This document shows positions 21,119-64,000 of a stretch of DNA of 64,000 nucleotides, piece by piece; positions within the stretch are counted from its first letter, which is position 1, and each line of letters starts with the position of its first letter. The notes beneath the pieces were generated by a model. The model worked only from the letters and a program-made list of their open reading frames with translations, was not told where the DNA came from and did no database searches. The stretch is taken from positions 2,912,001-2,976,000 of the forward strand of contig JBKAGP010000001.1 in assembly GCA_046290465.1 (NCBI GenBank). Direction: 5' to 3'. Position numbers and translations under genes: made by a program. This DNA is from Planctomycetota bacterium (GTDB lineage Bacteria; Planctomycetota; UBA1135; UBA2386).

Positions 21119-21193
21119 GCGGGTGTAGTTCAGTGGTAGAACGTCAGCTTCCCAAGCTGAATGTCGTCGGTTCGATCCCGATCACCCGCTCCA
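21119..21193 (+). tRNA. tRNA-Gly (anticodon CCC), CCA encoded
   Basis: Full cloverleaf: acceptor GCGGGTG/CACCCGC, D-arm GTTC/GAAC, anticodon arm TCAGC-TTCCCAA-GCTGA, T-loop TTCGATC. Confidence 0.97.
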
Positions 21194-22511
21194 TTCCTTC
21201 CAGGGACTTACGCGCGACGCGCCCGAAGCTCCCCTTGCCGTGTGCCAGTTTAGTGCCAGGAAGTCCGCGGAGCTGTGAGCGGCTGCCACCACCACCGCCA
21301 CGCGGTAACCGTTCGACCGCGTCTCTCAGATCGTCGCACACGAGGTGCGCGTAGACACGAGCTGTCAGCTCAGGCGAACTGTGGCCCATGAGTTTCTGCA
21401 CCTGGTGCAGGCCAACGCCGGCACGGAGCAGTCGCGTTCCGTAAGTGTGCCGCAGGGCATGGATGTCGAGCTTCTGGCCCGACGCGTCGATCTTCTCGAG
21501 CTCGGCGCGGTCGAGCAGCCGGTCGAAGATGCGCATCGCGTTCCGGCTTTGCTTGCCCCATGGCTCGCCCCGCGGGGTCAGGAAGATTCGATCGCCGTCC
21601 CCGGGCACGTCGCCGAGTAGCTCGGTCTGGAGTTCTCGCAGCGCGACGAGCTCCTGGACCAGCTCTTTGCGGATGGGGTTGGTTTGTTCGCGACCTGACT
21701 TTGCCGTCTCTGCGCGCAGCCGAAGCGTCGCGCTTTCCTCGTCGAGGTCCTGCCAGACGGTCTGGCTGAGGGCTCCCCAACGGGCGCCGGTCTCCACGAG
21801 CGCGAGCCAGAGAGGGTACTGCGGCACCCGATGCGAGCGCTCGCGGCCGGCGTAGCGACTCCCCTTCGTGCCGTTCTTGATCGTGCGTTCGGCCGCCACG
21901 TGGCGCGCCTGCTCGGCGTCGTCCTCGATCGCGGCCGTGAGGAATCGTTCGATCTCTGCTTCCGTGAGGGCACGCCGACGGTAGCGCTGGTGCTTCTGCC
22001 CCTGCGGCAGTCGCTTGAGCTTCGCCAGCGGGTTCGATGCGATGACGTCGCAGTCGACCGCCCACCGCAGCATCCCCTGGACGGCCGCCACGTCGAGGTT
22101 CGCGGTCCGGTTGGACGCACCGTCTTCGATGCGCCGGCGACGCCACTCGAGCAGGTCGCTCGTCTGCAACTCCGAGACACGCCTGGCGCGCAGTCCCCCG
22201 AGCACGCGCTTCAGTCGGCCTTTCAGGTTGCTCAGGTGCCCGGCACTGACCCTCTGCTCGAGATCGGATTCGTAGAGTCCCCGAACCTCTTCGAGCAGGC
22301 GGTCGTGGGACTCCTCGCGACCAAGCCCGGCGAGCTCGAGGTCCCGCCGACGGATGATGTCTCCGAGTTGACGCTCGGCGACCCGCCGATCCGTCGAAAG
22401 CACCTGGCGGCGCCGCTTACCGCTCGCGTCGCTCCAGTCTCCCACGTAGACCGTGCCACGTTTGTTCCGCCGCCTGACGAGGCGCCCACGTCCGATTGCG
22501 CGGCCTCTCAC
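21144..22511 (-). CDS. int: Tyrosine recombinase/integrase
   Basis: ETGAR, AKSG, HALRH, MGH, VYAH catalytic set; GTG 22511 overlaps the upstream TGA. Confidence 0.93.
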   Translation of the reverse strand: MRGRAIGRGRLVRRRNKRGTVYVGDWSDASGKRRRQVLSTDRRVAERQLGDIIRRRDLELAGLGREESHDRLLEEVRGLYESDLEQRVSAGHLSNLKGRLKRVLGGLRARRVSELQTSDLLEWRRRRIEDGASNRTANLDVAAVQGMLRWAVDCDVIASNPLAKLKRLPQGQKHQRYRRRALTEAEIERFLTAAIEDDAEQARHVAAERTIKNGTKGSRYAGRERSHRVPQYPLWLALVETGARWGALSQTVWQDLDEESATLRLRAETAKSGREQTNPIRKELVQELVALRELQTELLGDVPGDGDRIFLTPRGEPWGKQSRNAMRIFDRLLDRAELEKIDASGQKLDIHALRHTYGTRLLRAGVGLHQVQKLMGHSSPELTARVYAHLVCDDLRDAVERLPRGGGGGSRSQLRGLPGTKLAHGKGSFGRVARKSLEGMERVIGIEPTTFSLGS

Positions 22512-25126: not shown

Positions 25127-25959
25127 GATCGCGCTCCTTCTTGCCCCTGAAGAGCCTCCCACTGCGAGTTGACGTAGAGGAAGATCGCATCGAAGGCGTC
25201 GTTCAACCACGCCAGGTCAAAGGACGGACGGGTGTCGCTGTGGAACTGCTTCACCAGATCCCGCCAGACCTTCCTGGACTCACCCTGCCCTGCCTCCGAG
25301 CCAAAGGTCTCCCCCGGGTCCTCCGGTAGCGCAACCCTGAGCACCGGGCCTCCGTCTTCCATCCCAAGAGTCGCCAGGGAGCCATCCAGCGACTGCAGAA
25401 GGCGAGACACCCGCTCGTCCCACTGCTCACACCGAGCGAGGAAGGCCTCGTATCGCTCGCCAACAGGGAAGAAGCTGTGCTCAAGGAACTCGAGGAAGTC
25501 CCCACGGGCGGCCTCGATGTCACGTCGGGAATCACGCAGATCCTCGACGAACTTCAGATCGGCACCGGCCTCCGCAAGACGCAGCCGCTCGCGCAGGTCA
25601 TTCAGCTCTCGGTGCAGCTCGGCGTTACGAGTGCGTTCCGCTCTCAGATCCTGCTCGATCTTCTGCTTATCCACGACAGCATCGAGCGCTCTCCCATCCG
25701 CCACGAACGCCTGGTGCTCCAGGCCCTGCATTCGCTCGCGGCTCTCGTTGGCCCGCCTCTCCAGGTCGATGACCCAGAAGGCCAGGATGGACAATGCGCC
25801 AACGACCAACGACGCCATCGCGGCCGGCACGACCCCAGCCCCCTCGGACGCCATGACCGCGACGCCGAGGCTTGCGCAGGCTCCCAGACCGAAGAGCCCC
25901 ACCGCCCCGATGACCCGGGACCTCAAGCCATCTGGCCACGCTACGCGGAACCTCACCAT
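25123..25959 (-). CDS. 2TM-coiled-coil protein with C-terminal J-domain-like segment
   Basis: Two N-terminal TMs, long heptad region, C-terminal RKVWRDLVKQFHSD...FLYVNSQWEAL. Confidence 0.65.
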   Translation of the reverse strand: MVRFRVAWPDGLRSRVIGAVGLFGLGACASLGVAVMASEGAGVVPAAMASLVVGALSILAFWVIDLERRANESRERMQGLEHQAFVADGRALDAVVDKQKIEQDLRAERTRNAELHRELNDLRERLRLAEAGADLKFVEDLRDSRRDIEAARGDFLEFLEHSFFPVGERYEAFLARCEQWDERVSRLLQSLDGSLATLGMEDGGPVLRVALPEDPGETFGSEAGQGESRKVWRDLVKQFHSDTRPSFDLAWLNDAFDAIFLYVNSQWEALQGQEGARS

Positions 25960-27461
25960 GGCAGACGAACGCCTCCATCGCGCATCTTCTTCTCGCCGCC
26001 GCTCGACGGCGGCGGGATCTTGAGGCGCGCATAGTCCGCCGCACCCCAGGTGTAGCCGATGTCTTCCTTCGTCAGCTTGCGTCTACGACGCACGTTCTCG
26101 TTGGGCGGCTGCTCGCCCAACATCTGCTTGATGAACTTGCCATCGACCTTCTTGCGCCACGCCCCAACCATCGGAGCACGCGCGACGACCTCGTAACCGT
26201 TCCCAAGGGAGGCCTGCGGGAAGTCCTGAAACTCGTAGGGGTAGACGTTGTGATCCTCGCGCAACTCGTGACCGATCGTTGTGCTCCGGCCTTGCGGCGA
26301 CTTCGTGTCGGTTCGCTTCTCCTGCCAGAACACGTGCTTTCCGAAGAAGCCCGACAGCCACTCAGCCGCATCAGGTGACGCAAGCCGTCCAACGCAGAGG
26401 TTGCCGATCTGCCCGACTGCCTCGCTGGCCTGCTCTCGTCCGCCGAAACGGGCGATCAGGCCGCCTGGGTCCTGAATCGTCGCCGCTGTCCGAACGCCCT
26501 TGATGCGCCCAAGGAGAAGCGCCTCTCGGTAGGAGGCGAGAATCGACTCCGGCGTCTCGTCGACGAAGAGGAACGTCTCATCGACGGGGTAGTTCTCAGC
26601 CCGATCGCGCAGCCGAGCGACGAGAAGACGGAACACAAACGAATTCCACGCCTCGATCGTCTTGGAGTTCCTTGACGATCCCCTGAGGACGATCACCCCT
26701 CCCGAGTTCAGCCATCCATCCACCGTGATGTAGTGCTCTGCCCGCCGCTCGAGCAAACTAGCGAGACGCCATGGCCCCAGCTTGACGTTCAGTGTCTGCA
26801 GCATGTTCTGACTCGCCTCTACGCCCTTCCTCAGATACTCGCGAAGCAGGCTCTTGCCGCGAGGGTGCAGCTGGAGGACGTGCCGCAGGAGGGACTCATC
26901 CCCACACGCGATAAGAAGGTCGTAGAGAAACCAATCGCCTCCGCGCAGCTGTAGCGTGTGCACGATTGCTTCGAGCAGCTGTTGAGCTGCTGGGGTGAAG
27001 AAGTCATGCGACTTCTTCGAGTCCTCGATCATCATGTGGGCGAGCTCCTGACCGTCTTCCGGCGTCACGCAGCTCTTGCCCAGATGCAGAGCGATTCCGC
27101 TCTCGCTGTAGGCATGAAGGTCGATCAGGTACTCAGGCGGGCACCACCCAAGCACGCTCGGCATTAGGTCCTCGCCCTTCGCGTCGAAGATTACGATGCG
27201 ACAGCGAGGACGCACCCGACCATCCCACGGCCTCGCACCCAGCACGTTCCGAAGCAACATCCGTAGCTCCAGCGTCTTCCCCGAACCGGTCTGGCCGAAG
27301 TACATGAAGTTCGGAGCCAGACAACCATCCGGAAGGATGTTCCCCGCAAAAGGGTAGGCCGCCGACAGGCGTAGACGTTTTAGTGCCTCCGGACAGGTCC
27401 GAGCCATCTGCGACAACGAAAGCAGTTCCCCGCTCTCAATAGGATGCGGAGTCGGGGTCAT
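25953..27461 (-). CDS. Type IV coupling protein (TraD/TrwB-like ATPase)
   Basis: Walker A GQTGSGKT, IFDAKGE, Walker B LFVDE, AAEWLSGFFG; next to the relaxase. Confidence 0.85.
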   Translation of the reverse strand: MTPTPHPIESGELLSLSQMARTCPEALKRLRLSAAYPFAGNILPDGCLAPNFMYFGQTGSGKTLELRMLLRNVLGARPWDGRVRPRCRIVIFDAKGEDLMPSVLGWCPPEYLIDLHAYSESGIALHLGKSCVTPEDGQELAHMMIEDSKKSHDFFTPAAQQLLEAIVHTLQLRGGDWFLYDLLIACGDESLLRHVLQLHPRGKSLLREYLRKGVEASQNMLQTLNVKLGPWRLASLLERRAEHYITVDGWLNSGGVIVLRGSSRNSKTIEAWNSFVFRLLVARLRDRAENYPVDETFLFVDETPESILASYREALLLGRIKGVRTAATIQDPGGLIARFGGREQASEAVGQIGNLCVGRLASPDAAEWLSGFFGKHVFWQEKRTDTKSPQGRSTTIGHELREDHNVYPYEFQDFPQASLGNGYEVVARAPMVGAWRKKVDGKFIKQMLGEQPPNENVRRRRKLTKEDIGYTWGAADYARLKIPPPSSGGEKKMRDGGVRLPW

Positions 27462-28105
27462 GAATCATCCTCCTCGCCCCGGAAGCTCCGGATGTGTTCA
27501 TCGCAAGCGGCGCGAGCAACCTCTTCAACCTGCGACGCTCCAAGACATCGGTATCCCGCGTAGAGCGGGGTCACCTCTTCCGCTGTGACGGCGAACTGGG
27601 CGTAGAAGCTGGCCAAGAGCAGCGGCAACGTGACGGCCAGTGCGAGACCATGCGTCGACCAGTAGCCATCTCTGATGTCTCGCAGGTCGGCATCGACCAG
27701 CAGGAACGTCACCGCCACGGCCAGGGCGTAGCCGACCAGCACACGAACGAAGGGGCGAAGGTGGTGCCACAACCTCCGTCGAAGGTCGATCTCTCGCCCG
27801 TCTCGCGCACAAAGCGTCCCGTGAAGCAACGGCGGCAACGCGCCGAGGATCAGGAGGATCTCCGGCCAGTAGTAGAGGACCGTTCCTGCTCGCCCTGCCC
27901 CGCTGACGATCCCCAGCCTCCCCCATGACAGGCACGACCAAGTCACCAACCAGGCCGGGAACAGGACCACCGCACACTCGGCGAACAAGCGGACGCCCGT
28001 CCCCACCGTGTCTGGCAGCACAACGCCGCAGGGGCTCGGGTCCCGCCTCGCGATGCGGTCCAGCCTCATGCTGATGAGCTCGTAGGCCAACGGGTGCGCA
28101 TCCAT
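27458..28105 (-). CDS. Hypothetical membrane protein (~4 TM)
   Basis: Hydrophobic segments; start and stop overlap both neighbours. Confidence 0.65.
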   Translation of the reverse strand: MDAHPLAYELISMRLDRIARRDPSPCGVVLPDTVGTGVRLFAECAVVLFPAWLVTWSCLSWGRLGIVSGAGRAGTVLYYWPEILLILGALPPLLHGTLCARDGREIDLRRRLWHHLRPFVRVLVGYALAVAVTFLLVDADLRDIRDGYWSTHGLALAVTLPLLLASFYAQFAVTAEEVTPLYAGYRCLGASQVEEVARAACDEHIRSFRGEEDDS

Positions 28106-30786
28106 CACAGCCTCACCCCCAATCCCGGCGACTGGGACTGACGCCACGCCTGATCTTCCAGCTGCAGCTGGTCCTGGATCGTCGTCGCAAGCTCCTCCCT
28201 CCGACTACGCTGCATGCTGCGGGACAACTCGGCGAGCCCCTCTCCAACCGCGATCTCGTGCGTGTAGACATGGAGGTCGTGCGCCTGCCTGGTCAGCGCC
28301 ACGTAGCTGAGTTCTGCGTCCAGATTCCCCGGATCGGCTAGCACGAGTGCTCGATCCACGGTCTTGCCCTGGACACGGTGGATCGTTGCCGCGAATCCTA
28401 GCTCGACGTGCGGATACACGCGCAGATCGACGTCGGCAAACAGTTCGGCCCCGTTGCGCCCCTCTCGATCAAGACGCACGCGCAGATGACGACCGCTCGC
28501 AGCAACGACCTCTCCGAAGTCTCCGTTCACTACGCCACCGGGCTTCTTTGCCCACAAGCGCCCCCGCCCACCGAACGCAGTGACGTCAACTCGGAACGAG
28601 TTGCGGCGCAGCACGACGCGGTCACCGAGGTGGAAGCACAACGGAGAAGCTCCAGCGCCCCGATACAGCTTGGTGCCGCGCTCACCGAGTTCCACGGGCG
28701 CACCGACCCGCTCGCCACGCTCGATTCGGGCCTTCTGCACCTGCTCGTTCAGCCGAGTAACTTGCGAGCGCGTCGATGCGATGATCAGCGTGTCTCGCCT
28801 CTGACCGGCCCCATAGGACATGTAGCGATCGACACAGGCGTTGATCGGACTCTCCTCCCCACCGCAGACGTGGAGTCTGTCGTGTTCTGCGAGCAGGCGA
28901 AGCGCCTCGTCGGCCTCGCGACTGCGGACGTGACCGCTGAGAGCCTGCATCCACGGTTGCTCCCGCTGCCTCCAGTTCTTCTTGAGCTCGATGTGGCCGA
29001 CCAGATCCGCGAGCCTTGAGAACAGAGAGGCGCCTGAAAGCACAGGACCAAGCTGGCGCTCGTCACCACACAGGATGACCTTCGCCCCCGCTTGCTTGGC
29101 CCTATCGATCACCTTGGCCAGCTTGCGGAATCCCACCATCGCAGCCTCATCGACGACGATGTAGTCGCCCTTCCGAACCTGCATGTGCGACGGGTTCCAG
29201 GTCATACTCCTCGGGTTGACCAAAACCCGCAGGAGCATGCGCACGTGATGGCGCAGCGCTCTTGCCGGCACCGAATGCGACAGGCGCTCGAACCGGTCCA
29301 CGGTGAACGTGCTCTCGATCCGCGCTCCGGCCGCCAGCTCCTCGCGCGCCACACCTGTCGGAGCAAGCCCGATCACGCGTCGCCCCTCCGCATCTGCCGC
29401 CGCCACCAGCGCGGCAAGCAGCCGCGTCTTGCCGGTCCCGGCCGCCCCCTTGAGGACCTTGATAGCGCCCTTCGTCCCAGCGAGGTGCTTCAACGCTACT
29501 CGCTGCTCCCGATCCAGCCCGAGACGCCGAGCCACCTTGTCGAGCTGCTCTTCGCGAACGCGGTGCCCCGCCGCCTTGTGCATTGCCTCGGCATTCGCCA
29601 GGGCGTCCACCTCCACCCCGTAGTTCTCGCGAGTGGTGTAGAGCACGCTGCCGCGTCGCTCGCCCAGCCTGTGAACCCGCTCATCGTTCTGCAACACGTG
29701 ATCCACCGCCCGTACGACATCGCCGATCCGCGCATGACCACCTCGGCATGCATATGCGGCGACCCTCTGAACGTCGGTCTCGCGGAAGGAGGAATGTTGC
29801 GCGGCGACCTGACCGACCGCCCGGCTGGCAGCTCGCCGCGCATTTGTCCGGCTGCGGTCCAGGTTTCCCTTCGCCCGCCATCCGAACAGCCTGCTGATGC
29901 TCTGCTTCGTCACGCCATACCGCGACGCTGTCGCCCGCCACTCGCCGACCAGATCGTCGAAGGAACGCTCGATCTTGCTCGGCCGGATCCGTAGCTGGAT
30001 CGCCTCGCGGGCCTTCGCCGACTCGTATCCCAACTGCCCCGCCTTCTGCAGGAGCTTCGCCCGCGCCTTCGAGAACTCCTTGAGGACCTCTTCTGGAATC
30101 CCGCAGAGCTCGAAACCGTCTTTCGTCTTGCGGACCGCGAGCCCTTCGGCCCGGAGCCGCGAGGCCAACTCGGACGTCGCCATCGCGCCCAAAGCCATCT
30201 TCGCCTCGTATAGCGAACGGCTCTGCAAGGAACCCCAGGTACCGTCCTGTCTCAGGCCGGCATTGAAGATCACAACGTGGCAATGCAGCTGCGGATCCCC
30301 GTGGCGAGACTCGATGTGCCAGAACTTCACGACCACGAGTCCGGCAACCTGTTCGGAGCGCATCCCACCCTTTCCTCTCCGCGCCTTCACCACGTGGTCT
30401 TCGATGTGTCGGACCAGTGAGTCAACCGTCTCGTTCACCGCCCCCTGCACAGTTCGGCGCACGTCGTCGCTACCGAGCAGAGCAACGACGCTGACGCTCT
30501 TCGGGACGCTGATGGTCATGTCCCAAGCCGCATCACTGTCGTCCCCGTAGTTCTGACGCAACTGCTCGGCTTGAGGGCCAATCGCCCTACTCATGTCCGA
30601 GAACCTCTGCAACGTGACCTTCTCACCAAGCAGATCCAGTTCGTCTGCCCCCACACCCCCAAAGACGGGGACCGCACCGTCCTGCAGCAGGTAGCGCAGA
30701 AAGCGAAGTTCGTCACCTTCGCGCTCGATGTCCTGCCTGTGGTAGGACACGAGGTTGCCGGATCCCGATGACATGGAGACGAGCAT
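28105..30786 (-). CDS. MOBF (TrwC/TraI-like) relaxase fused to RecD-like helicase
   Basis: DMTISVPKSVS, HIESRHGDPQLHCH (HUH motif), FSKAR; helicase GAAGTGKT, VDEAAM, GDERQL, TIHRVQGKT, YVALTR. Confidence 0.93.
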   Translation of the reverse strand: MLVSMSSGSGNLVSYHRQDIEREGDELRFLRYLLQDGAVPVFGGVGADELDLLGEKVTLQRFSDMSRAIGPQAEQLRQNYGDDSDAAWDMTISVPKSVSVVALLGSDDVRRTVQGAVNETVDSLVRHIEDHVVKARRGKGGMRSEQVAGLVVVKFWHIESRHGDPQLHCHVVIFNAGLRQDGTWGSLQSRSLYEAKMALGAMATSELASRLRAEGLAVRKTKDGFELCGIPEEVLKEFSKARAKLLQKAGQLGYESAKAREAIQLRIRPSKIERSFDDLVGEWRATASRYGVTKQSISRLFGWRAKGNLDRSRTNARRAASRAVGQVAAQHSSFRETDVQRVAAYACRGGHARIGDVVRAVDHVLQNDERVHRLGERRGSVLYTTRENYGVEVDALANAEAMHKAAGHRVREEQLDKVARRLGLDREQRVALKHLAGTKGAIKVLKGAAGTGKTRLLAALVAAADAEGRRVIGLAPTGVAREELAAGARIESTFTVDRFERLSHSVPARALRHHVRMLLRVLVNPRSMTWNPSHMQVRKGDYIVVDEAAMVGFRKLAKVIDRAKQAGAKVILCGDERQLGPVLSGASLFSRLADLVGHIELKKNWRQREQPWMQALSGHVRSREADEALRLLAEHDRLHVCGGEESPINACVDRYMSYGAGQRRDTLIIASTRSQVTRLNEQVQKARIERGERVGAPVELGERGTKLYRGAGASPLCFHLGDRVVLRRNSFRVDVTAFGGRGRLWAKKPGGVVNGDFGEVVAASGRHLRVRLDREGRNGAELFADVDLRVYPHVELGFAATIHRVQGKTVDRALVLADPGNLDAELSYVALTRQAHDLHVYTHEIAVGEGLAELSRSMQRSRREELATTIQDQLQLEDQAWRQSQSPGLGVRL

Positions 30787-49207: not shown

Positions 49208-50020
49208 ATGCGAGACCTTGGCCTCGAAGTTGAGACCGTGACACGCTGGTTCGCCGAAGAGCAGCGATCGCCCTTCGTGCTTGTGCGTGTTCCCGACGAG
49301 CACGCTGCTGCTTGGTCGGACGTCCTTGGTGTCTCAGTCCGTCGGTGCTACATCGATGACACCGTCCTCAAGGCGCGCGTGCAGGCAACCGGTTGCCCTC
49401 GGTCGGAGATCGTCGCCGCGAGGCTCCCGGATCCAGGTTCGACGATGTCAGGGGACTTCGGCGAGATACTGGTGTTTCTCTACCACGCAGCTGCCGAACG
49501 CGATGTCGACCTCATTGGCCCAAAGAAGTGGCGCCTGAAGCAGGACCGAACAAAACCAGCGCCACACTCGGATGTCGTTCACTTCGTGCTGCCGAGCTGG
49601 CCACGCTCCTCGACCGAGGACCGCATCCTGTGCTCTGAGGTAAAGACGAAGGCCACGGCCGGAGCCTCATCACCGATTTCCAAGGCGATTGATGACTGCG
49701 AGAAAGACCGAACCAGTCGATTGGCGAAGACCCTAGTTTGGCTGAGGGAACGTGCGCTTCATGAAGACCTTGGCAGCACGACCATCGATCACCTCGACCG
49801 CTTCATCAAGGCCACGGACCACCCCCAAGCCAAGAAGTGCTTCCACGCCGTCGCGGTCATTTGCGAGAACCTCGTGGACAACGAACTGGCAGACGCGCCC
49901 GACGAAGCGCCTGCAGACCACACGGTTGTAGTCATCGCAGTTCCAAACCTGAAGGAACGCTACGAAGCCGTATTCGACGCCGCTCATGCCACCGTCGCGG
50001 AAGCGGGCGGTGAGACGTGA
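49208..50020 (+). CDS. hamA: Hachiman HamA-like nuclease (DUF1837)
   Basis: GDFGEIL, SDVV, EVKT nuclease-like motifs; GTGA-coupled to a Ski2-like helicase. Confidence 0.75.
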   Translation: MRDLGLEVETVTRWFAEEQRSPFVLVRVPDEHAAAWSDVLGVSVRRCYIDDTVLKARVQATGCPRSEIVAARLPDPGSTMSGDFGEILVFLYHAAAERDVDLIGPKKWRLKQDRTKPAPHSDVVHFVLPSWPRSSTEDRILCSEVKTKATAGASSPISKAIDDCEKDRTSRLAKTLVWLRERALHEDLGSTTIDHLDRFIKATDHPQAKKCFHAVAVICENLVDNELADAPDEAPADHTVVVIAVPNLKERYEAVFDAAHATVAEAGGET

Positions 50021-52995
50021 GGGCAACTCTGGCAAAGTGGGTCGGTGACGCTGACGCCCTTCATCACGTGGAACGGTTCGGCTCCTCGCAGCCGCCACTA
50101 CAGCTGAGCTACATCAGGTCACGAGGCGACGACTACTACATTTCCCTCGTCGGCGAGCTCTTCGACAGGCTCCGTGAGCCCTACCGCGATCCGGTCGACT
50201 GGTCACGCCTGGGCAACGCCATCACTCAGGCCGGCGGCGTAGGAGAAGCTCGGGCAAACGCCTACTCCGGTATCATGGCGGCCGAAGCCGCCATCTTTGC
50301 TGCGGCCGCGTTCTACTTCGGCGGTTACTCTGCATCGGCCTACGTCACGTTGAAGACCTGCGACCCGGGTGCCCTCGATGACATTCAGCTCGCGTGCTAC
50401 GAGCTGCTCTCACGTCCACCGGCGATCAGGTCGGCACGTGTGCGTACCCTTGTTGGCGGCGTTCGAAGAGGGAACCTTGAGGTGCTTCGGGCGGAGGGCG
50501 AGTACGCGACTGAGAAGGAGGCATCTGCACTGCACACAGATTCCGGTGAGTGGATCGGCTGGCGGCTATTCGGGCGGGTCCTCTCCAAGTTCGAGCGAAC
50601 TAACGTCCGTGCAGTTCTACCCGATGGCGAATCGGGATTCTGGGACCCGCTAGTGCGGTCGTTCCTCAACCGGACCCCACCTACCTGGGATTTCTTCCCC
50701 TCGCAAATCGATGCCATTAGGAGCGGCCTGCTTGGAAGCGTGGCCTCATTCTCCCTACAGATGCCGACAGGCGCGGGAAAGACAGCTCTCTCTGAGACCC
50801 TCCTCTTTCACCACCTCAACCGCAACCCGCAGGATGTGGCCATCCTGCTCGTCCCCTTTCGCTCGCTCGCGGCAGAGCTTCGCGGCAGCCTTGCAAAGCG
50901 CTTGAGCAACATGGGCCTTCCCACCAGGTGTGCGTATGGAGGTACCGTGCCCACCGGCGAAGAAGTCAGAGACCTCGATGCAGCACGCGCGATCGTCGCA
51001 ACGCCTGAGGCACTATCGGGCCTGCTCAGCGCAGAGCCGGACTTCTACTCCCGAGTATCCCTCGTCATCTGCGACGAAGGGCACCTCCTCGATGGTGAGG
51101 CGCGCGGGGTCGGACTTGAGTTGCTGCTCGCCCGCATGCGCGCCCGCGAGAAAGGCCCGCCAAAGTTCGTCTTCGTTTCCGCGATCGTCCCGAACATCGA
51201 GGAGATCAACGTGTGGCTTGGCGGCACGGATCAGACCGTCGTTCGCAGTGACTACCGCCCGGCTCTCGCAGAGTTCGCAGCGCTGCAGGTAGCTGGCAAA
51301 GGCGCCGCCATGACGGTCGCGCTTCAGCTTCACCCACACCAAGCCGCATCCACGTTCTCTATCGAACGATTCCTGAGCCGTGATGACTTTCGCCACCGCA
51401 ATCCCACTACGAACCGGCTGAACACATACCCTTTCAAATCTGTGAAGGCCCAAGCCATCGCAGCAGCACGGAAGTCGCTCTCGATGGGGTCCGTTGCCGT
51501 GTTCGCGGCCAACAAGAGAGGCACTCAGGGAGCCGTAGGGCTCGCTCATGAACTCCTCCAACAACTGGCGAGCCTGCTGCCCCTGCCCGCCCCCATGCAG
51601 TTCGTCGGGGATGCGGTGAAGCTGCAGTCGGCAGTTGAGCACTTCACCCTGGAATACGGCGCTTCCTGGGTGGGCACACGAACACTTGCGGCAGGAGCCA
51701 TACTGCATCATGGAGACATTCCGCAAGAGAGCAGGGAAGTCGTGGAATCGCTGATTCGCGACAAAGACGTTCGCCTTGCCATCTGCACCAACACTTTGGC
51801 GGAAGGCGTCAACCTGCCGATCAGGACGTTGGTCCTCTACTCCGTGCAGCGTCGTGGCCCCAACGGAGCAGCAGAGAACCTGCTCGCGCGCGACATCAAG
51901 AACCTCGTCGGGCGCGCTGGACGAGCTGGGGCAACCACCAAGGGGCTGGTCATCTGCGCCAACCCTGGACAATGGCAACTTGTCGCCCCCGTGGCCGAGC
52001 AACAGCCAGGCGAACGCGTCTCCGGGGCACTGCTCGAGTTGATGGGGCGCGTCGAGTCAGCACTGAGCCAGCGGAGCATCACCCTCACAAACGACATCCT
52101 TGAGGGTGCGACGGCGCTTCACACTCTGATCGACGGCATCGATGCAACGCTTATCGATCTTGCCGCCGAGGAGCTAGGCGAAGATGAACTCGTGCGCATG
52201 GCCGGAGAGCTTTCGAGCCAGACTTTCGCGGCCCGCCAAGCTCAACAAACGACCACGGCACTGATGAAACAGGTGTTCGAGCTGCGTGCTCAACGCGTGG
52301 CAGCCATCAAGGGAGCGGGGAGACTCGCATGGATCCGAGAAACGGGTACGCGAGCACGAATGCTGGAGTCGGTGGAGGTCAATCTGTTACCCATGCGACA
52401 ACGCTGGGATGACATCGAAACGCCAACCGATCCGGAGTTGACAGAGACACTGCTGGTCTGGGCGTGGGGCCTTCCCGAGGTAGCCGAGGCACTCGACGAG
52501 GCCTACCGGGGATCCCCCCCATCGCGGTCGAGTTTCGCCAGGATCTTGGAGGCGTGGATCGACGGCCGATCTCTGGCGGAGATCGCCAGCCAGACGGAAA
52601 CCGATATCGACACCATGCTCGGCGTTCATTCCCGGGTCGTCAGCTACGTCCTCCAGGTAGCCGTCGAGCAGGGCATCGGGCTGCTAAGGAAGCTGCTCGA
52701 CGCGAATAACCTCGAACTGTCTAAGGCCGTTGCGGACTTCCCCGAGCACCTACGCTTCGGTGTCCCAACGCCTGCCGGAAGATTGCTCGCAGCTGGCGGA
52801 GTCAGGCACCGACGAGCTGCTGTAGCGCTTGGCCGCAGCCCTGAGCTTGCGTCGGATCGTGGAGATGACCGAGAAGCCGTCCTCTCCGTAGCCCGACACC
52901 TGCTCGAAGACCGCGAAAGGTGGCTGCCTTCGATGGGGACTCTGGTGCTGGAGAACACGATACTCGACCTCATGGCTGCGCGAGGAACTGGATAG
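50017..52995 (+). CDS. hamB: Hachiman HamB-like SF2 (Ski2-like DEAD/DEAH) helicase
   Basis: MPTGAGKT, DEGH, SAI, HHG, TNTLAEGVNLP, GRAGRAG. Confidence 0.8.
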   Translation: MRATLAKWVGDADALHHVERFGSSQPPLQLSYIRSRGDDYYISLVGELFDRLREPYRDPVDWSRLGNAITQAGGVGEARANAYSGIMAAEAAIFAAAAFYFGGYSASAYVTLKTCDPGALDDIQLACYELLSRPPAIRSARVRTLVGGVRRGNLEVLRAEGEYATEKEASALHTDSGEWIGWRLFGRVLSKFERTNVRAVLPDGESGFWDPLVRSFLNRTPPTWDFFPSQIDAIRSGLLGSVASFSLQMPTGAGKTALSETLLFHHLNRNPQDVAILLVPFRSLAAELRGSLAKRLSNMGLPTRCAYGGTVPTGEEVRDLDAARAIVATPEALSGLLSAEPDFYSRVSLVICDEGHLLDGEARGVGLELLLARMRAREKGPPKFVFVSAIVPNIEEINVWLGGTDQTVVRSDYRPALAEFAALQVAGKGAAMTVALQLHPHQAASTFSIERFLSRDDFRHRNPTTNRLNTYPFKSVKAQAIAAARKSLSMGSVAVFAANKRGTQGAVGLAHELLQQLASLLPLPAPMQFVGDAVKLQSAVEHFTLEYGASWVGTRTLAAGAILHHGDIPQESREVVESLIRDKDVRLAICTNTLAEGVNLPIRTLVLYSVQRRGPNGAAENLLARDIKNLVGRAGRAGATTKGLVICANPGQWQLVAPVAEQQPGERVSGALLELMGRVESALSQRSITLTNDILEGATALHTLIDGIDATLIDLAAEELGEDELVRMAGELSSQTFAARQAQQTTTALMKQVFELRAQRVAAIKGAGRLAWIRETGTRARMLESVEVNLLPMRQRWDDIETPTDPELTETLLVWAWGLPEVAEALDEAYRGSPPSRSSFARILEAWIDGRSLAEIASQTETDIDTMLGVHSRVVSYVLQVAVEQGIGLLRKLLDANNLELSKAVADFPEHLRFGVPTPAGRLLAAGGVRHRRAAVALGRSPELASDRGDDREAVLSVARHLLEDRERWLPSMGTLVLENTILDLMAARGTG

Positions 52996-57293: not shown

Positions 57294-58613
57294 TCAATGT
57301 CGCCGTCCCGGAGTCTGGAGCAACCGCTCCAGCACGACGGTCGCCGCCAAGTCTCCCGTCACGTTCACCGCGGTTCGCGACATATCAAGGATGCGGTCGA
57401 CTCCCAAGATCATGGCCACTCCACCGGCCGGGACCCCGATGCCCTGAAGCACTGATGCCAGGATGACGATGCCGACTCCAGGAGTGCTCGGCGATCCAAT
57501 CGAAGCACCGATCGTCGTGCAAGCCAGCAACGCCATCTCACCGAGGCTGAGGTCCACACCAAACACCTGGGTCATGAATACGGCAGCAGTCACCTGATAG
57601 AGCGCTGTTCCGTCCATGTTCACGGTCGCTCCAAGCGGAATGACGAACTGCACGACCGGTCGTGACGCCCCCAGGCTTTCCTCTGCGATCTTCATCGACA
57701 GCGGCATAACGGCGGCAGAACTCGAGGTGGAGAACGCAAGCAACTGCGCATCACGAATGCGGGCGAGAAACTGCAACGGCCCCTGCTTCCCCAACCACCG
57801 CACGAGCAAGGAGTAGACGACGATCAGTGCTACGAGTCCAAGAAGGACGGTCGCCACGTAGGCCCCAAGCCCCGCGAGGGCATTCGCTCCAGTACGCGTC
57901 ATCACTTGCGCCAAGAGCCCAAAAACCGCAACTGGTGCAAGCGCCATCGCCCACCCGACAACCTTGAGTGCAAGCTCCTGCGTCGCCTGGAGAATCCGAA
58001 TGAGGAGTTCGCGGGACTCGGATCTGAGCCCTACCAGCGCGACGCCAACCAACATCGCGAACACCACCAACTGCAGCATGCTTCGGTGAAGAAGAGCGCT
58101 CGACGGATTGCTCGGAATGATCTCTGCAATGCGTTCGGGCAACAGTCTTGATGAAGCCCCCGTCTCGACTGGCATGCCCCCCTGATCGGTGACACCATCG
58201 AACGACGCACCATCGACGAGGTGACCTGGCCCGATCAGGGTAGCAAGGGTGATCCCGATCAGCACCGCGATACAGGTCGTCGCTACGAAGTAGGGAAGAA
58301 CTCGGAGCCCCACGCGCTTGAGAAACTCCGCTGACCCACCAGACGCGATCCCCAGGATGACCGACGAGAGCACCAGCGGCACGACCATCATCTGGATCAG
58401 CGCCATGAAGACATGACCCGGCAAGGCCAGCCAGCACGCAATCAGTCTCGCGCCGCTCTCCGCAAAGAGACCACCTCCCGAGGGGGAGAGGGCCAAGCCA
58501 ACGCCCACGCCCAGCGCCATCCCTATGAGAACCTGCAGCCATAGGCGACTCCGAACGTAAGCCGCAATGCGCCGCAAGAGCCCTTGTGACCCTACTTCAC
58601 GATTTCTCATCAT
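57294..58613 (-). CDS. Dicarboxylate/amino acid:cation symporter (DAACS)
   Basis: AFSTSSSAA, GATVNMDGTALY, DRILDMSRTAVNVTGD; RBS AGGAGG. Confidence 0.93.
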   Translation of the reverse strand: MMRNREVGSQGLLRRIAAYVRSRLWLQVLIGMALGVGVGLALSPSGGGLFAESGARLIACWLALPGHVFMALIQMMVVPLVLSSVILGIASGGSAEFLKRVGLRVLPYFVATTCIAVLIGITLATLIGPGHLVDGASFDGVTDQGGMPVETGASSRLLPERIAEIIPSNPSSALLHRSMLQLVVFAMLVGVALVGLRSESRELLIRILQATQELALKVVGWAMALAPVAVFGLLAQVMTRTGANALAGLGAYVATVLLGLVALIVVYSLLVRWLGKQGPLQFLARIRDAQLLAFSTSSSAAVMPLSMKIAEESLGASRPVVQFVIPLGATVNMDGTALYQVTAAVFMTQVFGVDLSLGEMALLACTTIGASIGSPSTPGVGIVILASVLQGIGVPAGGVAMILGVDRILDMSRTAVNVTGDLAATVVLERLLQTPGRRH

Positions 58614-58840
58614 GCCTCCTGGAAGCGCTCCGGGATGCACAGCATCCCGCCGATGAATCCCAGCCGCGCGGCATGACTTGCTCCCTATCGCCTCGCAACT
58701 CCAGCCGACTCACGCAGCGGCGAGGTCTCGCCGACACAATCCAGAGTGATCAGGCTTCGGACCGAAAGCGGCGACATGCATGTAAGTAGCCCCGCAGTCG
58801 CAGCGGCGAGACCTCGCGGCCCCAGCGCTGCGCGGGCCCC

Positions 58841-59143
58841 CTACTTGCGCTTTGCCGACTGCCCAGCGGCGTCCATTCCCGCAAGCAACTGCTCTACAGT
58901 TGTCGCATTGGGGTCAAGGCTGACGACGATATCGGCCGAACCAGGCTCGACCTCGATTCCCGACACGCCAGGGAGCTTGGTCACGGCACCACGCACGGTG
59001 GCGGCACAACCGCCTCAAGTCGGCGTCTTGTCCAGGACAAGGTGGACTTGGGTAGACGTGAGCTGAGAGTCGTGCTTGACCGTGCTGCAGCCAGCGAATG
59101 ACAGCGCGACGATGACTGCGCAGGCAATCCAGAGATGCTTCAT
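58841..59143 (-). CDS. HMA-domain lipoprotein with in-frame TGA, probable selenoprotein (U43-G-G-C46)
   Basis: MKHLWIACAVIVALSFAGC...LVLDKTPT-TGA(59015-59017)-GGCAATVRGAVTKLPGVSGIEVEPGSADIVVSLDPNATTVEQLLAGMDAAGQSAKRK-TAG. Confidence 0.8.
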
Positions 59144-59254: not shown

Positions 59255-60019
59255 CTACCCCGGCGACTTGCGCGCTGCATCGACAACCGCAATGTACTTC
59301 GCGGGATTCTCATCGATGTTCGCAAGGCAGTCTGGACAACAAACCCGAATCAGGCGACCCGCGACAACAGCTTCCAGGTACGGGGGCGCAGGCAGGCCTA
59401 TCGGACGACCACTCACGGGGCAGCTACTGAGGCCGTAGCCGTCTGCCTGGGAACGCGCGGCAGCCCTGCTCAGAGCATCGAGGAACTTGCTCGGCCCCTT
59501 CATGACGGCCTCCCTCTCGTCGCTCGAATCAACCCTGACGAGCCGGTTGCCTACGACGAACTCGACGGGGCGTGCCGGCAACTGCCTCCCGGTCACGACT
59601 GAATCCCTCATCGCGTAGATCCCCTCCTGGTCCGCTACGATCCACCGGTCAACCTCTGCAAAACTGCTCACCAGATCCTGACCGAACAACCGCGAACACT
59701 GACTGCAACAGAACCGCACCTCGCGACCGCCGTAGGACTTGATGAGCCCAGTCTTGGTCACGGCCAAGTCCTCACCTGAAACTGGGCAGGTGGCGAACGG
59801 GTAGGGGTCACCGATCCTGAAGTAAGGCCGAGAGACTCGAAACGCACTCGGCGCAATGCGGTTGCGAACTCCTCCCGCACCCGAGCCACGGGGCGCCGCG
59901 CACGCAAGAAGGAACACGGCGAGCACGATTGCCACCCCCGAGACCGAAAGGGACCGTGCGAACGAGCGCCAGAAGCACCGCCGAGACCAGCGTGCTGGAC
60001 AACCATTATTGCAACGCAT
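59255..60019 (-). CDS. Exported TRASH/YHS-repeat metal-binding protein
   Basis: YPFATCPVSG...REVRFCCSQC and CPVSG...RVCCPDC; LLAC lipobox-like; start uncertain. Confidence 0.75.
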   Translation of the reverse strand: MRCNNGCPARWSRRCFWRSFARSLSVSGVAIVLAVFLLACAAPRGSGAGGVRNRIAPSAFRVSRPYFRIGDPYPFATCPVSGEDLAVTKTGLIKSYGGREVRFCCSQCSRLFGQDLVSSFAEVDRWIVADQEGIYAMRDSVVTGRQLPARPVEFVVGNRLVRVDSSDEREAVMKGPSKFLDALSRAAARSQADGYGLSSCPVSGRPIGLPAPPYLEAVVAGRLIRVCCPDCLANIDENPAKYIAVVDAARKSPG

Positions 60020-60209
60020 CGCGACACAAAGACAGCAACGTGCGTGCCTCGCCGCGCAACCCTCGATCACCGCCCACCGACCACCACGGGGACAGCCCAA
60101 TTCGCACGGCCATCCCGGCAACGAAACCTGTCAGCGCCGTCGCTGTCCGGCCAAACACATGGCGGCCGAGGGCACCGCCACGCGTGGCGGCTCAGCGCGC
60201 GCGGCCTCA

Positions 60210-62474
60210 TCAACCAGCCGACCCGAACGCACGTAGCCGCAGCGCGTTGACGATAACCGACACCGAGCTCAGGCTCATCGCAGCGGCCGCGATCATCGGA
60301 CTCAACAGCCAACCCGTGAACGGAAACAGTACGCCCGCAGCCAAAGGCACACCGGCGGCGTTGTAGCCAAACGCGAACAGGAGGTTCTGCTTGATGTTCC
60401 GCATCGTCGCTGCGCTCAGCTCGCGCGCACGCACGATGCCTCGCAGGTCGCCCCTGACGAGCGTCACGGCGGCGCTCTCCATCGCGACGTCCGTTCCTGT
60501 TCCCATCGCGATGCCCACGTCCGCCTTCGCGAGCGCAGGCGAGTCGTTGATGCCATCGCCGGCCATCGCCACCTTGGCGCCGCCTTCCTGGAGTTGCTCG
60601 ATCGTCGCGAGCTTCTGATCGGGCAGAGCATCGGCGATCACCTCGTCGATGCCCAGTTCTCGCCCGACGGCTTCGGCCGTTGCCCGGTTGTCGCCGGTCA
60701 ACATCACGACGCGCAGACCGGCACCGTGCAGGGCGCGGATGGCCTCCGGCGCGCTGTCCTTGATCGGGTCCGCGACTGCCAGCATGCCGATCAGCTGCCC
60801 ACTCGCGGCCAAGAACATGACCGTGGCCCCGTCACCCTGCAGCCGGGCGGCCCGAGTACGGTCCGCGTCCGACGCGGCCACGCCGATCTTTTCCATCAAC
60901 GCGAGATTGCCAAGGGCGACATCCTGTTGCTCGACCCGGCCCATGACGCCCTTGCCCGTCACGGACTCGAACCCATCGACGCCCGACAACTGGATCTCGC
61001 GCTCACTCGCACCCTCGACGATGGCGCGCGCGAGTGGGTGTTCGCTGCGCGTCTCCAGGCTCGCCGCCAGTCGCAAGACGGCGGACTCGTCTGCTCCGGC
61101 TTCGCTGACGACCTGCACGTTAGTCAGTTTCGGCTGTCCGAGCGTCAGCGTGCCGGTCTTGTCCACGACCAATGTGTCGATGGCACGAAGGCTCTCGATC
61201 GCCTGTGCGTTGCGGAACAGCACGCCCAACTGCGCGCCCCGCCCCGTCGCCACCATGATCGACATCGGCGTCGCCAGGCCGAGCGCGCACGGGCAGGCGA
61301 TGATGAGCACGGCAACCGCGTTGAGCAGCGCATAGGCGAGGCGGGGCTCCGGCCCCCAAACGCTCCAGACGACGAACGCGAGCGCCGCACACGCGACCAC
61401 GATGGGAACGAACCAGGCGGCGACACGATCGGCAAGCCGCTGGATCGGTGCTCGGCTTCGCTGTGCATCGGCGACCATCTGGACGATCTGTGCTAACAGC
61501 GTTTCGCCGCCGACCTTCTCGGCCTCGATGGTGAGGCTCCCCGTCGTGTTGACCGTTCCGCCGATCACCTGATCGCCCGCCGCCTTGGCCACGGGGACCG
61601 GCTCGCCCGTGACCATCGACTCATCAACGGTGCTGCCGCCCTCGACGACGATGGCATCGACCGGAACGGCCTCGCCGGGACGAACTCGCAGGCGATCCCC
61701 CTTTCGGACGGACTCGACAGCGACCTCCTCCTCTGCGCCATCGGAGCCGATGCGCCGAGTCATCTTCGGCGACAGATCGAGCAACGCCCGGATCGCGGCG
61801 CCGGTGCTGCTGCGCGCGCGCAGCTCCATGACCTGACCGAGCAGCACGAGCGCCACGATCACCGCGGCGGCCTCGAAGTAGACGGCCACGCCGTGCGCTC
61901 CACGGAAGCCCTCGGGGAACCAATCGGGCGCCACGAGCGCCAGCACGCTGTAGACGTACGCGACGGAGACGCCGAGCCCAATCAGCGTGAACATGTTGAG
62001 CTGCCAACGCCTGACGGATTCCCAGCCCCGCACCAACAGCGGTAGGCCCGCCCAGGACACCACCGGCGTCGCGAACGCCAGCTCCAGCCAACGTGAGAAC
62101 CCGCCAAACAGTCCATGGATCGGAGCGCCAGGGAGCACCATGTCCCCCATCGCAAGCACGAGCAGCGGGACGGCCAGCACCGCGCTCCAGACGAAGCGGC
62201 GCCGCATGTCGCGGTACTCGGTATCGTCCGCCTCAGCGCTCGCATCGACGGGCTCGAGCGCCATGCCGCAGATGGGGCAGGTTCCCGGCCCTGCCTGCTC
62301 GATCTCCGGGTGCATGGGACACGTGTAGGTGTCAGGGGGCGCTGGTCGACCGGCCCCCGCGGTGTGACCTCTAGCAGGATGGAGGCCATGACCATGCCCG
62401 TCGGCGTTGGCGTGCTCGCCCCCATGGCAGCAGGTCTTGGCCTCTGGGGCGTCGTGGTGAGATTCATCTGACAT
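60210..62474 (-). CDS. copA: Cu(I)/Ag(I)-translocating P1B-type ATPase
   Basis: His-rich N-terminus, YTCPMHP, TGEP, ACPCALG, DKTGT, HP, GDGIND, YN and MxxSS motifs. Confidence 0.93.
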
Positions 62475-62554
62475 GGGATTCCGTTCGCTTTGCATGTCCA
62501 CGCTGACGACCAGACTGGGCGAACGTTACACCTACCGTGCCAGAGGACGCCCCG

Positions 62555-63109
62555 TCAGGCCTGCGGCGGCCTCGCGCAACTGCAGTCGAGGCAGCCGTGC
62601 TCGGCACATGTGCGACAGGTGAGCTGCACTTCCCGCCGCAGAGCCGCTCGAGCGCGGTGCAGGCGAACGCGGGCACTCCCAGCACTGACGCCGCGATCCT
62701 TGGCGACCGCCCCGACGGACCGGCCCTCCAGATCTACGAGCCGGACAAGCTCTGCATAGTCCGGATGGATGAGCGGCAACAACCCCTGGATGCAGACGCA
62801 GACGTCGCGCTGCCGTTCGGCATCCTCAGCTACCTGGAGGAGGTCGGAGTCAATCTCTAGGCCTGGGTGCCCCTCGGACCGCCGGCGATGCCGATCCACG
62901 ATGGCATTTCGGAGGATCCGGTAGAACCAGGCAACGACGTTCCCCTCCTCGCCTACGTCGACGACGCGCTCGACGCCACGCGCAAACGCGTCCTGCAGGA
63001 TCTCCTCGGCCTCATCCCGCGATGCTACACGGCGCTCGAGAAACGCCAGAAACTGGCGACGACTGGCGAGCAGGATCAAGAGTCGCTTATGGCTTTCGGA
63101 ATCGGTCAT
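62555..63109 (-). CDS. CorE-like metal-responsive ECF sigma factor
   Basis: ECF regions 2 and 4, CxC linker (DVCVC), C-terminal Cys-rich CRTCAEHGCLDCSC; upstream of copA. Confidence 0.85.
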   Translation of the reverse strand: MTDSESHKRLLILLASRRQFLAFLERRVASRDEAEEILQDAFARGVERVVDVGEEGNVVAWFYRILRNAIVDRHRRRSEGHPGLEIDSDLLQVAEDAERQRDVCVCIQGLLPLIHPDYAELVRLVDLEGRSVGAVAKDRGVSAGSARVRLHRARAALRREVQLTCRTCAEHGCLDCSCARPPQA

Positions 63110-63331: not shown

Positions 63332-64000
63332 ATGTCATTGCTCCGCTCCGCGATCTGCGCCGTAACTGCGATTGCGCTACTGAGCGCACCGACGGCCGCG
63401 CAGCATGGCGGCCACCACGACCACCCGGCGCCTCACCAGAAACCGACCACCAAGACCTCGAGAACTGGTGACCCCTACCCGTTCGCCACCTGCCCAGTTT
63501 CCGGCAAGAAGCTAGGAACCATGGGCGATCCCTTGGTGAAGGTCTACCGAGGGCGCGAAGTCCGCTTCTGCTGCGGTGGTTGCACCGGCAGCTTTGAGAA
63601 GGACCTCGACAGCAGCTTGGCCAAGCTCGACCAGAAGGTCATCGCAGACCAGCGCCCCATCTACCCGATGTCGAAATCGGTCGTCTCGGGCAAGAAGCTC
63701 CCGAAGAAGCCTGTCAACCTGGTCCTCGGCAACCGGCTCATCCTGTTGGCTGATGCGAAGGAGAAGGCAACAGCGCTGAAGTCACCCGGGAAGTACCTGA
63801 AGCAGCTGGACGCCGCCGTGAGCTCTGCGCAGGGAAAGAGCTACCCGTTGCAGAAGTGCGTAGTCAGCAACGAGCCCCTGGACAGCATGGGGAAACCAAA
63901 GGATGTCGTCATCGCCGGTCGCTTGATCCGCATCTGCTGTTCAAGCTGCGCAAAGAAGCTCGACAAGACGCCCTCCACATTCATCTCGACGATTGACAAG
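63332..64000 (+). CDS. Exported TRASH/YHS-repeat protein, paralog of 59255..60019 (runs off window end)
   Basis: Not in ORF track. MSLLRSAICAVTAIALLSAPTAAQHGGHHDH...GDPYPFATCPVSG...REVRFCCGGC...CVVS...RICCSSC. Confidence 0.85.
   Translation, partial: MSLLRSAICAVTAIALLSAPTAAQHGGHHDHPAPHQKPTTKTSRTGDPYPFATCPVSGKKLGTMGDPLVKVYRGREVRFCCGGCTGSFEKDLDSSLAKLDQKVIADQRPIYPMSKSVVSGKKLPKKPVNLVLGNRLILLADAKEKATALKSPGKYLKQLDAAVSSAQGKSYPLQKCVVSNEPLDSMGKPKDVVIAGRLIRICCSSCAKKLDKTPSTFISTIDK

Follow-up and report, generated by a model that had tools for sequence, protein, structure and literature searches.

A predicted selenocysteine-containing HMA lipoprotein encoded on a mobile element with copper genes in a Planctomycetota bacterium

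Within the window, by which we mean the whole 64,000-nucleotide stretch of DNA from a Planctomycetota bacterium that was analysed, lies a complete gene for a protein of 100 residues whose in-frame TGA at codon 43 is, judging from the sequence comparisons set out below, very probably recoded as selenocysteine (Sec). The product would be a lipoprotein with one HMA domain in which Sec stands at the first Cys position of the metal site. Taken as a whole, we favour with good confidence the reading of an intact Sec-HMA lipoprotein gene on a mobile element, whose likeliest job is the capture of Cu(I). The recoding had been proposed in an original prediction, and it is borne out by the sel genes of the host, by the pairing of TGA with Cys among homologs, by a covarying hairpin and by purifying selection downstream. 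The gene represents a known kind of selenoprotein in a version not yet catalogued; both UGA recoding and the presence of Sec in HMA domains have been described before. The coordinates of all features are collected in Table 1.

Table 1. Features of the Sec-HMA gene, its surroundings and the mobile element (window positions)
Feature	Position	Strand	Basis
Sec-containing HMA lipoprotein gene (predicted, U43), complete, 100 aa	58841..59143	minus	sequence, Pfam, AlphaFold, Foldseek
Signal peptide and lipobox F-A-G-C, Cys19 the predicted lipidation site	59087..59143	minus	sequence, conservation
HMA domain, residues 31-99, ferredoxin-like beta-alpha-beta-beta-alpha-beta	58847..59053	minus	AlphaFold, Foldseek
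TGA, codon 43 (predicted Sec43), first Cys position of CxxC metal site	59015..59017	minus	homolog alignment
Cys46, second ligand of the UxxC site	59006..59008	minus	invariant in 32/32 homologs
Candidate SECIS hairpin, 6-bp stem, 5-nt loop CGUGC (58997-58993)	58987..59003	minus	covariation, published models
Dicarboxylate/amino acid:cation symporter, downstream	57294..58640	minus	profile match; not conserved beside homologs
YHS/TRASH-domain protein, upstream, start uncertain	59255..60121	minus	weak Pfam TRASH and YHS matches, below cut-off
CopA-type P1B ATPase	60210..62501	minus	TIGR01511 590.7 bits, cut-off 397
CorE-like ECF sigma factor, internal CxC and Cys-rich C-terminus	62555..63109	minus	sequence, Pfam
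Second YHS protein, divergent	63332..64000	plus	sequence
tRNA-Gly(CCC) and left attachment repeat	21119..21196	plus	50-bp identical repeat at G000:C1:3010588-3010637
Tyrosine integrase	21144..22445	minus	PF00589
TrwB/TraD-like coupling protein (25953-27305) and TrwC relaxase (28105-30786)	25953..30786	minus	PF10412, PF08751

Results

The reading frame and its TGA codon

The gene is read on the minus strand, which the original prediction had not specified, from an ATG at 59143 to a TAG at 58841; a plus-strand reading of the same interval yields nothing. Past the TGA the frame runs on for 57 sense codons, which complete an HMA fold as had been claimed: the Pfam HMA (PF00403) score of the read-through, 38.9 bits, exceeds the curated cut-off of 24.8, and the metal site reads T-U43-G-G-C46. 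In public gene calls the protein is cut off at the TGA (P0003), a word-indexed protein search recovered the truncated N-terminal product alone, and the full-length read-through sequence is absent from a collection of 15 billion proteins. The early stop of the gene calls and the missing full-length protein speak for a nonsense pseudogene or a sequencing error, a reading that can be regarded as effectively refuted. The codon is unchanged in contigs from three independent runs belonging to three studies and is thus not a sequencing error; this comparison took in 4 of the 24 listed runs, and the fourth contig, from an RNA library, has four differences, of which three are listed and none of those three falls on the TGA. 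The same RNA-library contig (58926-59186, depth 2.6) does not count as evidence of expression. Moreover, the TGA is retained in 35 homologous domains down to about 30% identity, the hairpin behind it covaries, and the frame downstream of the hairpin is under purifying selection, which for practical purposes excludes a pseudogene: between L011, which matches the window's protein at 99%, and L013 we obtained dN 0.067 and dS 1.51, and in five other pairs dN/dS ranges from about 0.07 up to 0.23. Across the SECIS codons dS is lower in 5 of the 6 pairs.

Homologs and the pairing of TGA with Cys

Matches were found in 28 of 61 genomes of relatives, and one TGA is present in 41 of the 49 matches. That the TGA replaces the first Cys of the metal motif, as first proposed, agrees with the 39 distinct domains drawn from loci L011-L049, where the column holds TGA in 35, all of them UxxC, and Cys in 4; two of the Cys-form domains belong to lipoproteins of the same build, and full-length Cys lipoproteins occur in the protein library (P0121, P0129, P0151, P0152). 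A profile search of 401 genomes of the phylum gave 73 that match at E 1e-8, the distant matches being mostly Cys domains, with UxxxC and UxxU variants as well. The selA gene is present in 8 of 8 TGA-bearing genomes tested from the phylum set and absent in 3 of 12 Cys-form genomes tested. When 1.84 billion proteins were searched, multi-HMA ATPases dominated, and four single-domain matches stood among the best 150. The homolog tree was built on few columns, 30 of its 70 branches are open, and no order of Sec and Cys changes is claimed from it.

Other exported Sec-HMA variants are scattered through the phylum (L091 and L092 in G208 and G118, L093 and L095 in G352 and G433, L094 in G320); the types seen are UxxU, UxxxC in tandem pairs and a two-domain U/C protein. 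The host itself has two paralogs, L017 (G000:C1:3251155, plus strand) and L018 (3216888, minus strand), with U-A-S-C-C and U-L-Q-C and the same hairpin, as well as an HMA-like small protein, L054 (G000:C1:1516270, plus strand), whose motif G-U-G-G-T lacks a second Cys and which also has a CGUGA-loop hairpin.

The SECIS-like hairpin

The hairpin is 17 nt long and occupies positions +12 to +28 after the UGA, starting 11 nt downstream of it. The mRNA stem quoted in the original prediction proves correct, with six base pairs, an apical loop that begins after 17 nt from the UGA and a G at loop position 2. In the accessible text of PMC13188914 the bacterial SECIS model has a loop of 3-9 nt, a stem of 4-16 bp, a spacing of 16-37 nt and a G within the first two loop positions, all of which the hairpin fits (loop 5 nt, stem 6 bp, spacing 17 nt, G at position 2). 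The E. coli geometry, a 17-nt upper hairpin 11 nt after the UGA (PMC8659212, accessible part), is shared as well; compared with that fdhF-type element, which likewise has GU early in the loop, the window's hairpin is without the bulged U and the stable lower stem, and its loop is the 5-nt CGUGC.

Neither single-sequence folding nor RNAalifold lends the hairpin support: in the former its stability does not exceed that expected by chance (z-scores -0.6 to +1.1), and the latter yields no consensus pair. Its energy, -7.3 to -8.1 kcal/mol depending on the fragment, is borderline against the -7.5 criterion in the accessible text of PMC13188914. The minimum-energy fold favours a competing hairpin at +1 to +15 in 3 of the 4 fragments folded, which during decoding of the UGA would lie mostly inside the mRNA channel of the ribosome. 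Despite these folding results the hairpin is kept because of its pair counts, its codon coupling and its shifted-register copies. On 32 distinct rows of homologs, 90.6% of cells are paired compared with 79.2% after shuffling, and two-sided changes are found in 22 cells compared with 5.4 in shuffles, a value that 0 of 500 shuffles reach; the outcome is not to be read as a probability, since the tested structure was derived from the same related sequences. Registers slid along the hairpin are at most 53% paired. The codons tell more than the pair counts: Thr ACC goes with Arg CGT in 22 of 22 loci and Ala GCC with CGC in 6 of 6, which is an A-U to G-C swap and occurs in several tree branches, and CGT is used at 28 of 35 hairpin Arg sites, whereas elsewhere in these genes 5 of 44 Arg codons are CGT. 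Four loci without the original register have regained a CGUG(A/C) loop at a site 4 nt downstream.

Loops of the CGUG(A/C) type also follow TGA codons in unrelated candidates of the host, for example a rhodanese, and the host's selD has a related CGGGC loop. Ten host selenoprotein candidates (G000:C1: 3673738, 5113979, 2896767, 2746927, 3811962, 1298630, 5433827, 3355753, 3818597 and 6461678) include thioredoxin-like W-U-x-P-C with GGUC loops, MsrA-like G-U-F-W-G, rhodanese and AhpD-like proteins, and two kinds of loop, GGUC and CG(U/G)G(A/C), appear to be in use in this host. The hairpin alone is not diagnostic, as a genome-wide scan for TGA with a CGUG-loop hairpin yielded 371 matches among 102,599 TGAs, mostly noise. 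Filtering for coding sequence left 116 candidates, 35 of them with a hairpin, and these form a rough list because the scan missed the present gene itself. A short IUPAC pattern was discarded, controls having matched as often as targets.

The selenocysteine machinery of the host

The gene had been predicted to depend on host sel genes outside the window, and selA, selB, selC and selD were all found in the genome: selA, selB and selD score above their model cut-offs, selD has an in-frame TGA of its own, and selC is a tRNA-Sec of 72.8 bits over all 91 positions. That the UGA is instead read through as Cys or Trp, by a variant code or by a hairpin-guided Cys-inserting tRNA (such tRNAs exist), would suit the Cys that stands at the TGA column in homologs, but it is highly improbable in view of the tRNA-Sec score and the intact SelA and SelD; in addition, TGA serves as the ordinary terminal stop in many family members, and Trp stands at the TGA column in none of the homologs.

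A further claim, that dependence on Sec limits the hosts in which the gene works, is weak because, of 61 genomes from the host's genus, family and order, 60 have selA; such a limit could matter outside this order alone. One Planctomycetota relative has an RpoB 89% identical to the host's. The bin G452 contains the TGA gene, and selA, selB, selC and selD are undetectable in it. We considered it as a transfer into a host without Sec and rejected this: the contig that bears the element has a flank with matches in 6 of 7 genomes of the host's family, while the RpoB of the bin shares 47.5% identity with that of the host, and a flank typical of the host's family beside the RpoB of a distant lineage means that the locus (L012, G452:C119) is probably mis-binned.

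The lipoprotein signal and the HMA domain

The lipoprotein signal was judged by inspection and conservation, as a hydrophobic stretch ending in a lipobox Cys, and the lipobox first noticed in the sequence is indeed present, with F-A-G-C ending at Cys19. This residue is invariant in 32 of 32 aligned homologs, and the host encodes LspA (signal peptidase II); from the sequence we infer that the product is exported and lipid-anchored at Cys19 on the periplasmic side. AlphaFold, run on a 32-row alignment, gives a pLDDT of about 92 across residues 31-100, and the best Foldseek match among solved structures is MerP 1osd (E 1.8e-5, rmsd 1.7), Cys being substituted for Sec in both. In the predicted structure, U43-x-x-C46 stands at the start of helix 1, which comprises residues 44-55. 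Other residues replace both the Met in GMxCxxC and the aromatic residue in loop 5 of CopZ/MerP-type domains, position 95 being Glu or Gln in 29 of 32 sequences.

The copper neighbourhood

The CorE-like and CopA neighbours named in the original prediction are both confirmed. The ATPase scores well above its TIGR01511 cut-off (Table 1) and carries the motifs CPC, YN and MxxSS, which we take to be of the Cu(I) type. The sigma factor has the CxC and Cys-rich tail that define ECF44 in the accessible text of PMC4937300. The upstream YHS/TRASH protein lies 111 nt before the start of the HMA gene, and past the window edge there follow a multicopper oxidase, TolC, CusB, CusA, a double-Sec HMA gene and further RND pumps. 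A promoter scan found none, and terminators are at chance level (4 versus 4.7). Both divergent YHS paralogs share a 38-bp inverted repeat (window 59775-59812 and 63467-63504), which breaks short-read contigs. The double-Sec gene (L014/L050, G000:C1:2991650-2992290, minus strand), on the same element beside cusA, encodes an exported protein in which an HMA unit occurs twice in nearly the same form; both repeats have their own in-frame TGA (GMT-U-GGC) and their own hairpin of 8 bp with a CGUGA loop.

Among the 38 Sec loci with wide flanks, from which three Cys loci were left out, copper-gene homologs are nearby in 11 and missing from 27, some of whose flanks are ended by the contig. Ten of the 11 copper-linked loci counted or placed are in or beside the window gene's weakly supported clade, which has copper genes beside 10 of its 14 members and shows three or more gene orders in which it adjoins a multicopper oxidase, CusA or CopA. 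Of the metallochaperone for Cu, Ag or Hg originally envisaged, the copper part therefore stands in part, in 11 of 38 loci and in a closest clade that is mostly copper-linked, and for mercury there is no indication, no mer genes being seen among the annotated genes of the element. One further Sec-HMA lipoprotein gene, L065 (G033:C1:6721000-6735000), has neighbours whose sequence starts, compared by eye, resemble those of nitric oxide reductase and copper nitrite reductase, and its setting is possibly one of copper supply.

Fold and neighbourhood together suggest a Cu(I) chaperone or buffer, a role to which we give an even chance. Somewhat short of even is the alternative that the protein is a real selenoprotein with another task, either a general soft-metal buffer of the envelope (Zn, Cd, Hg, Ag) or a small Se-S redox shuttle, its place in a copper cluster being secondary. 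Such a task would agree with the 27 loci lacking copper neighbours, which include both chromosomal paralogs of the host in their non-metal settings, with the absence of the canonical Met and loop-5 residues, and with MerP as the closest solved fold; most catalogued UxxC proteins, moreover, are thought to be redox proteins according to the accessible part of section 7 of PMC13188914. It fits less well with a fold that is HMA and not thioredoxin, with the recurrence of copper genes next to the window clade, with a second Sec-HMA gene of the element adjoining CusA, and with the lack of annotated mer genes there. Cu(I) capture remains the reading that we prefer.

The mobile element

The island had been called mobile, and this holds: it is an element of 77.5 kb and lower GC, running from window position 21119 to G000:C1:3010637, with the tRNA-Gly at 21119-21193. 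The tRNA site, direct repeat, integrase, relaxase, coupling protein and its occurrence in unrelated flanks mark it as an integrative mobile element, and its transfer appears to have been recent. It also encodes ParA; among 10 left-arm proteins, 4 of them without a Pfam match, no mating-pair (T4SS) genes were recognised. In G451, a distant member of the Planctomycetota whose selB region is 75% identical to the host's, the element recurs with 99.97-100% identity over the three stretches tested, about 40 kb in all, and the flanks differ. A length difference of about 1.4 kb is implied in the untested parts, so the two look like separate copies, and shared-sample effects may underlie their near-identity. 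G452 and G453 also have related elements (84-91%) at tRNA-Gly. About 30 kb past the element end there is an older degenerate repeat (C1:3040241-3040288). The element also has a Hachiman-like defence pair (HamA and a DEAD-box helicase; window 49208-52995, plus strand); a B12-binding radical SAM protein, a ClpX-like ATPase and a DUF5131 protein are encoded nearby.

Discussion

The predicted protein shares features with several known systems and differs from each of them. In catalogued P1B ATPase selenoproteins the UxxC lies in the N-terminal HMA domain, and with these the setting of heavy-metal transport is shared; the HMA domain in the window is stand-alone, has a lipoprotein signal and is predicted to face the periplasm rather than the cytoplasm. 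The UxxU metal-binding (seleno)protein NF041115 is also a small HMA-like selenoprotein, to which the match is weak (E 3e-7; 30.5 bits, cut-off 95), the window protein having UxxC rather than UxxU, and a lipobox. The MerT/CopZ fusion-like selenoprotein NF045683 has an HMA-type domain too, whereas our protein, at 100 aa, is without the MerT part (16.7 bits, cut-off 375). MerP (TIGR02052; PDB 1osd, 1afi) has the same fold and metal-site position and is likewise exported (32.8 bits, cut-off 92.55), but the context here is copper rather than mer; CopZ (NF033795) again has the same fold and metal-site position (30.5 bits, cut-off 91), but is cytoplasmic and without a signal, whereas the window protein has both signal and lipobox. 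Unlike either, it carries a predicted Sec for the first Cys and a predicted lipid anchor, and is without the GM before the motif and the loop-5 aromatic residue.

Two selenoprotein sequences named "Mercuric transport protein MerP" in the GOS survey (PMC2398784, accessible text) are HMA-type as well; they were compared by description, and an overlap with the present family is possible. Table 1 of a 2026 review, which covers 119 families, lists P1B ATPase UxxC, MerT-type, UxxU metal-binding and 2Fe-2S CopZ-like selenoproteins, and a stand-alone UxxC HMA lipoprotein is absent from it. A literature search found no description of the family in the accessible parts of its sources, among them 10.1101/2022.07.06.499078, PMC9312934, PMC1976440 and PMC13326102, and Planctomycetota are not mentioned in the accessible text of the 2026 review or of the BSepDB paper. 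BSepDB or Haft and Tolstoy 2025 could already cover the family.

We envisage the following mode of action. The SelB of the host would bind the 17-nt hairpin 11 nt downstream of the UGA and deliver Sec-tRNA to it, and the product would be exported and then lipidated at Cys19. A short flexible linker would carry its single HMA domain, in which U43 and C46 would form a selenolate/thiolate pair at the usual metal site. Sec would keep the first ligand deprotonated and avid for soft metals. The gene travels with CopA, multicopper oxidase and Cus pumps in the window copy and in most of its nearest relatives, and the tethered protein may capture Cu(I) released by CopA at the outer face of the inner membrane, where the metal would be buffered or passed to the oxidase or to a Cus pump. 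The family is a lineage-wide one, most of its members away from copper genes, from which a tRNA-Gly-integrating element has acquired this gene.

It is possible, if rather doubtful, that the element, as a carrier of metal resistance spreading among Planctomycetota, uses Sec-based envelope metallochaperones (two genes with three Sec codons) as working parts of a copper-efflux relay. If so, copper tolerance would depend on the selenium supply and on a host SelB that recognises the CGUG-loop hairpin; full function of the element would be confined to hosts that decode Sec. According to the accessible text of the 2026 review, a direct role of Sec as a metal ligand is unconfirmed for most predicted cases. 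The soluble domain of 70 residues, which occurs naturally in Sec and in Cys form, offers a convenient test of Sec as a direct ligand of soft metals. The family is predicted to consist of small exported selenoproteins that occur throughout the lineage and are truncated or missed by gene callers, and the window gene presents a clear case of Sec-dependent genes travelling as the cargo of a mobile element.
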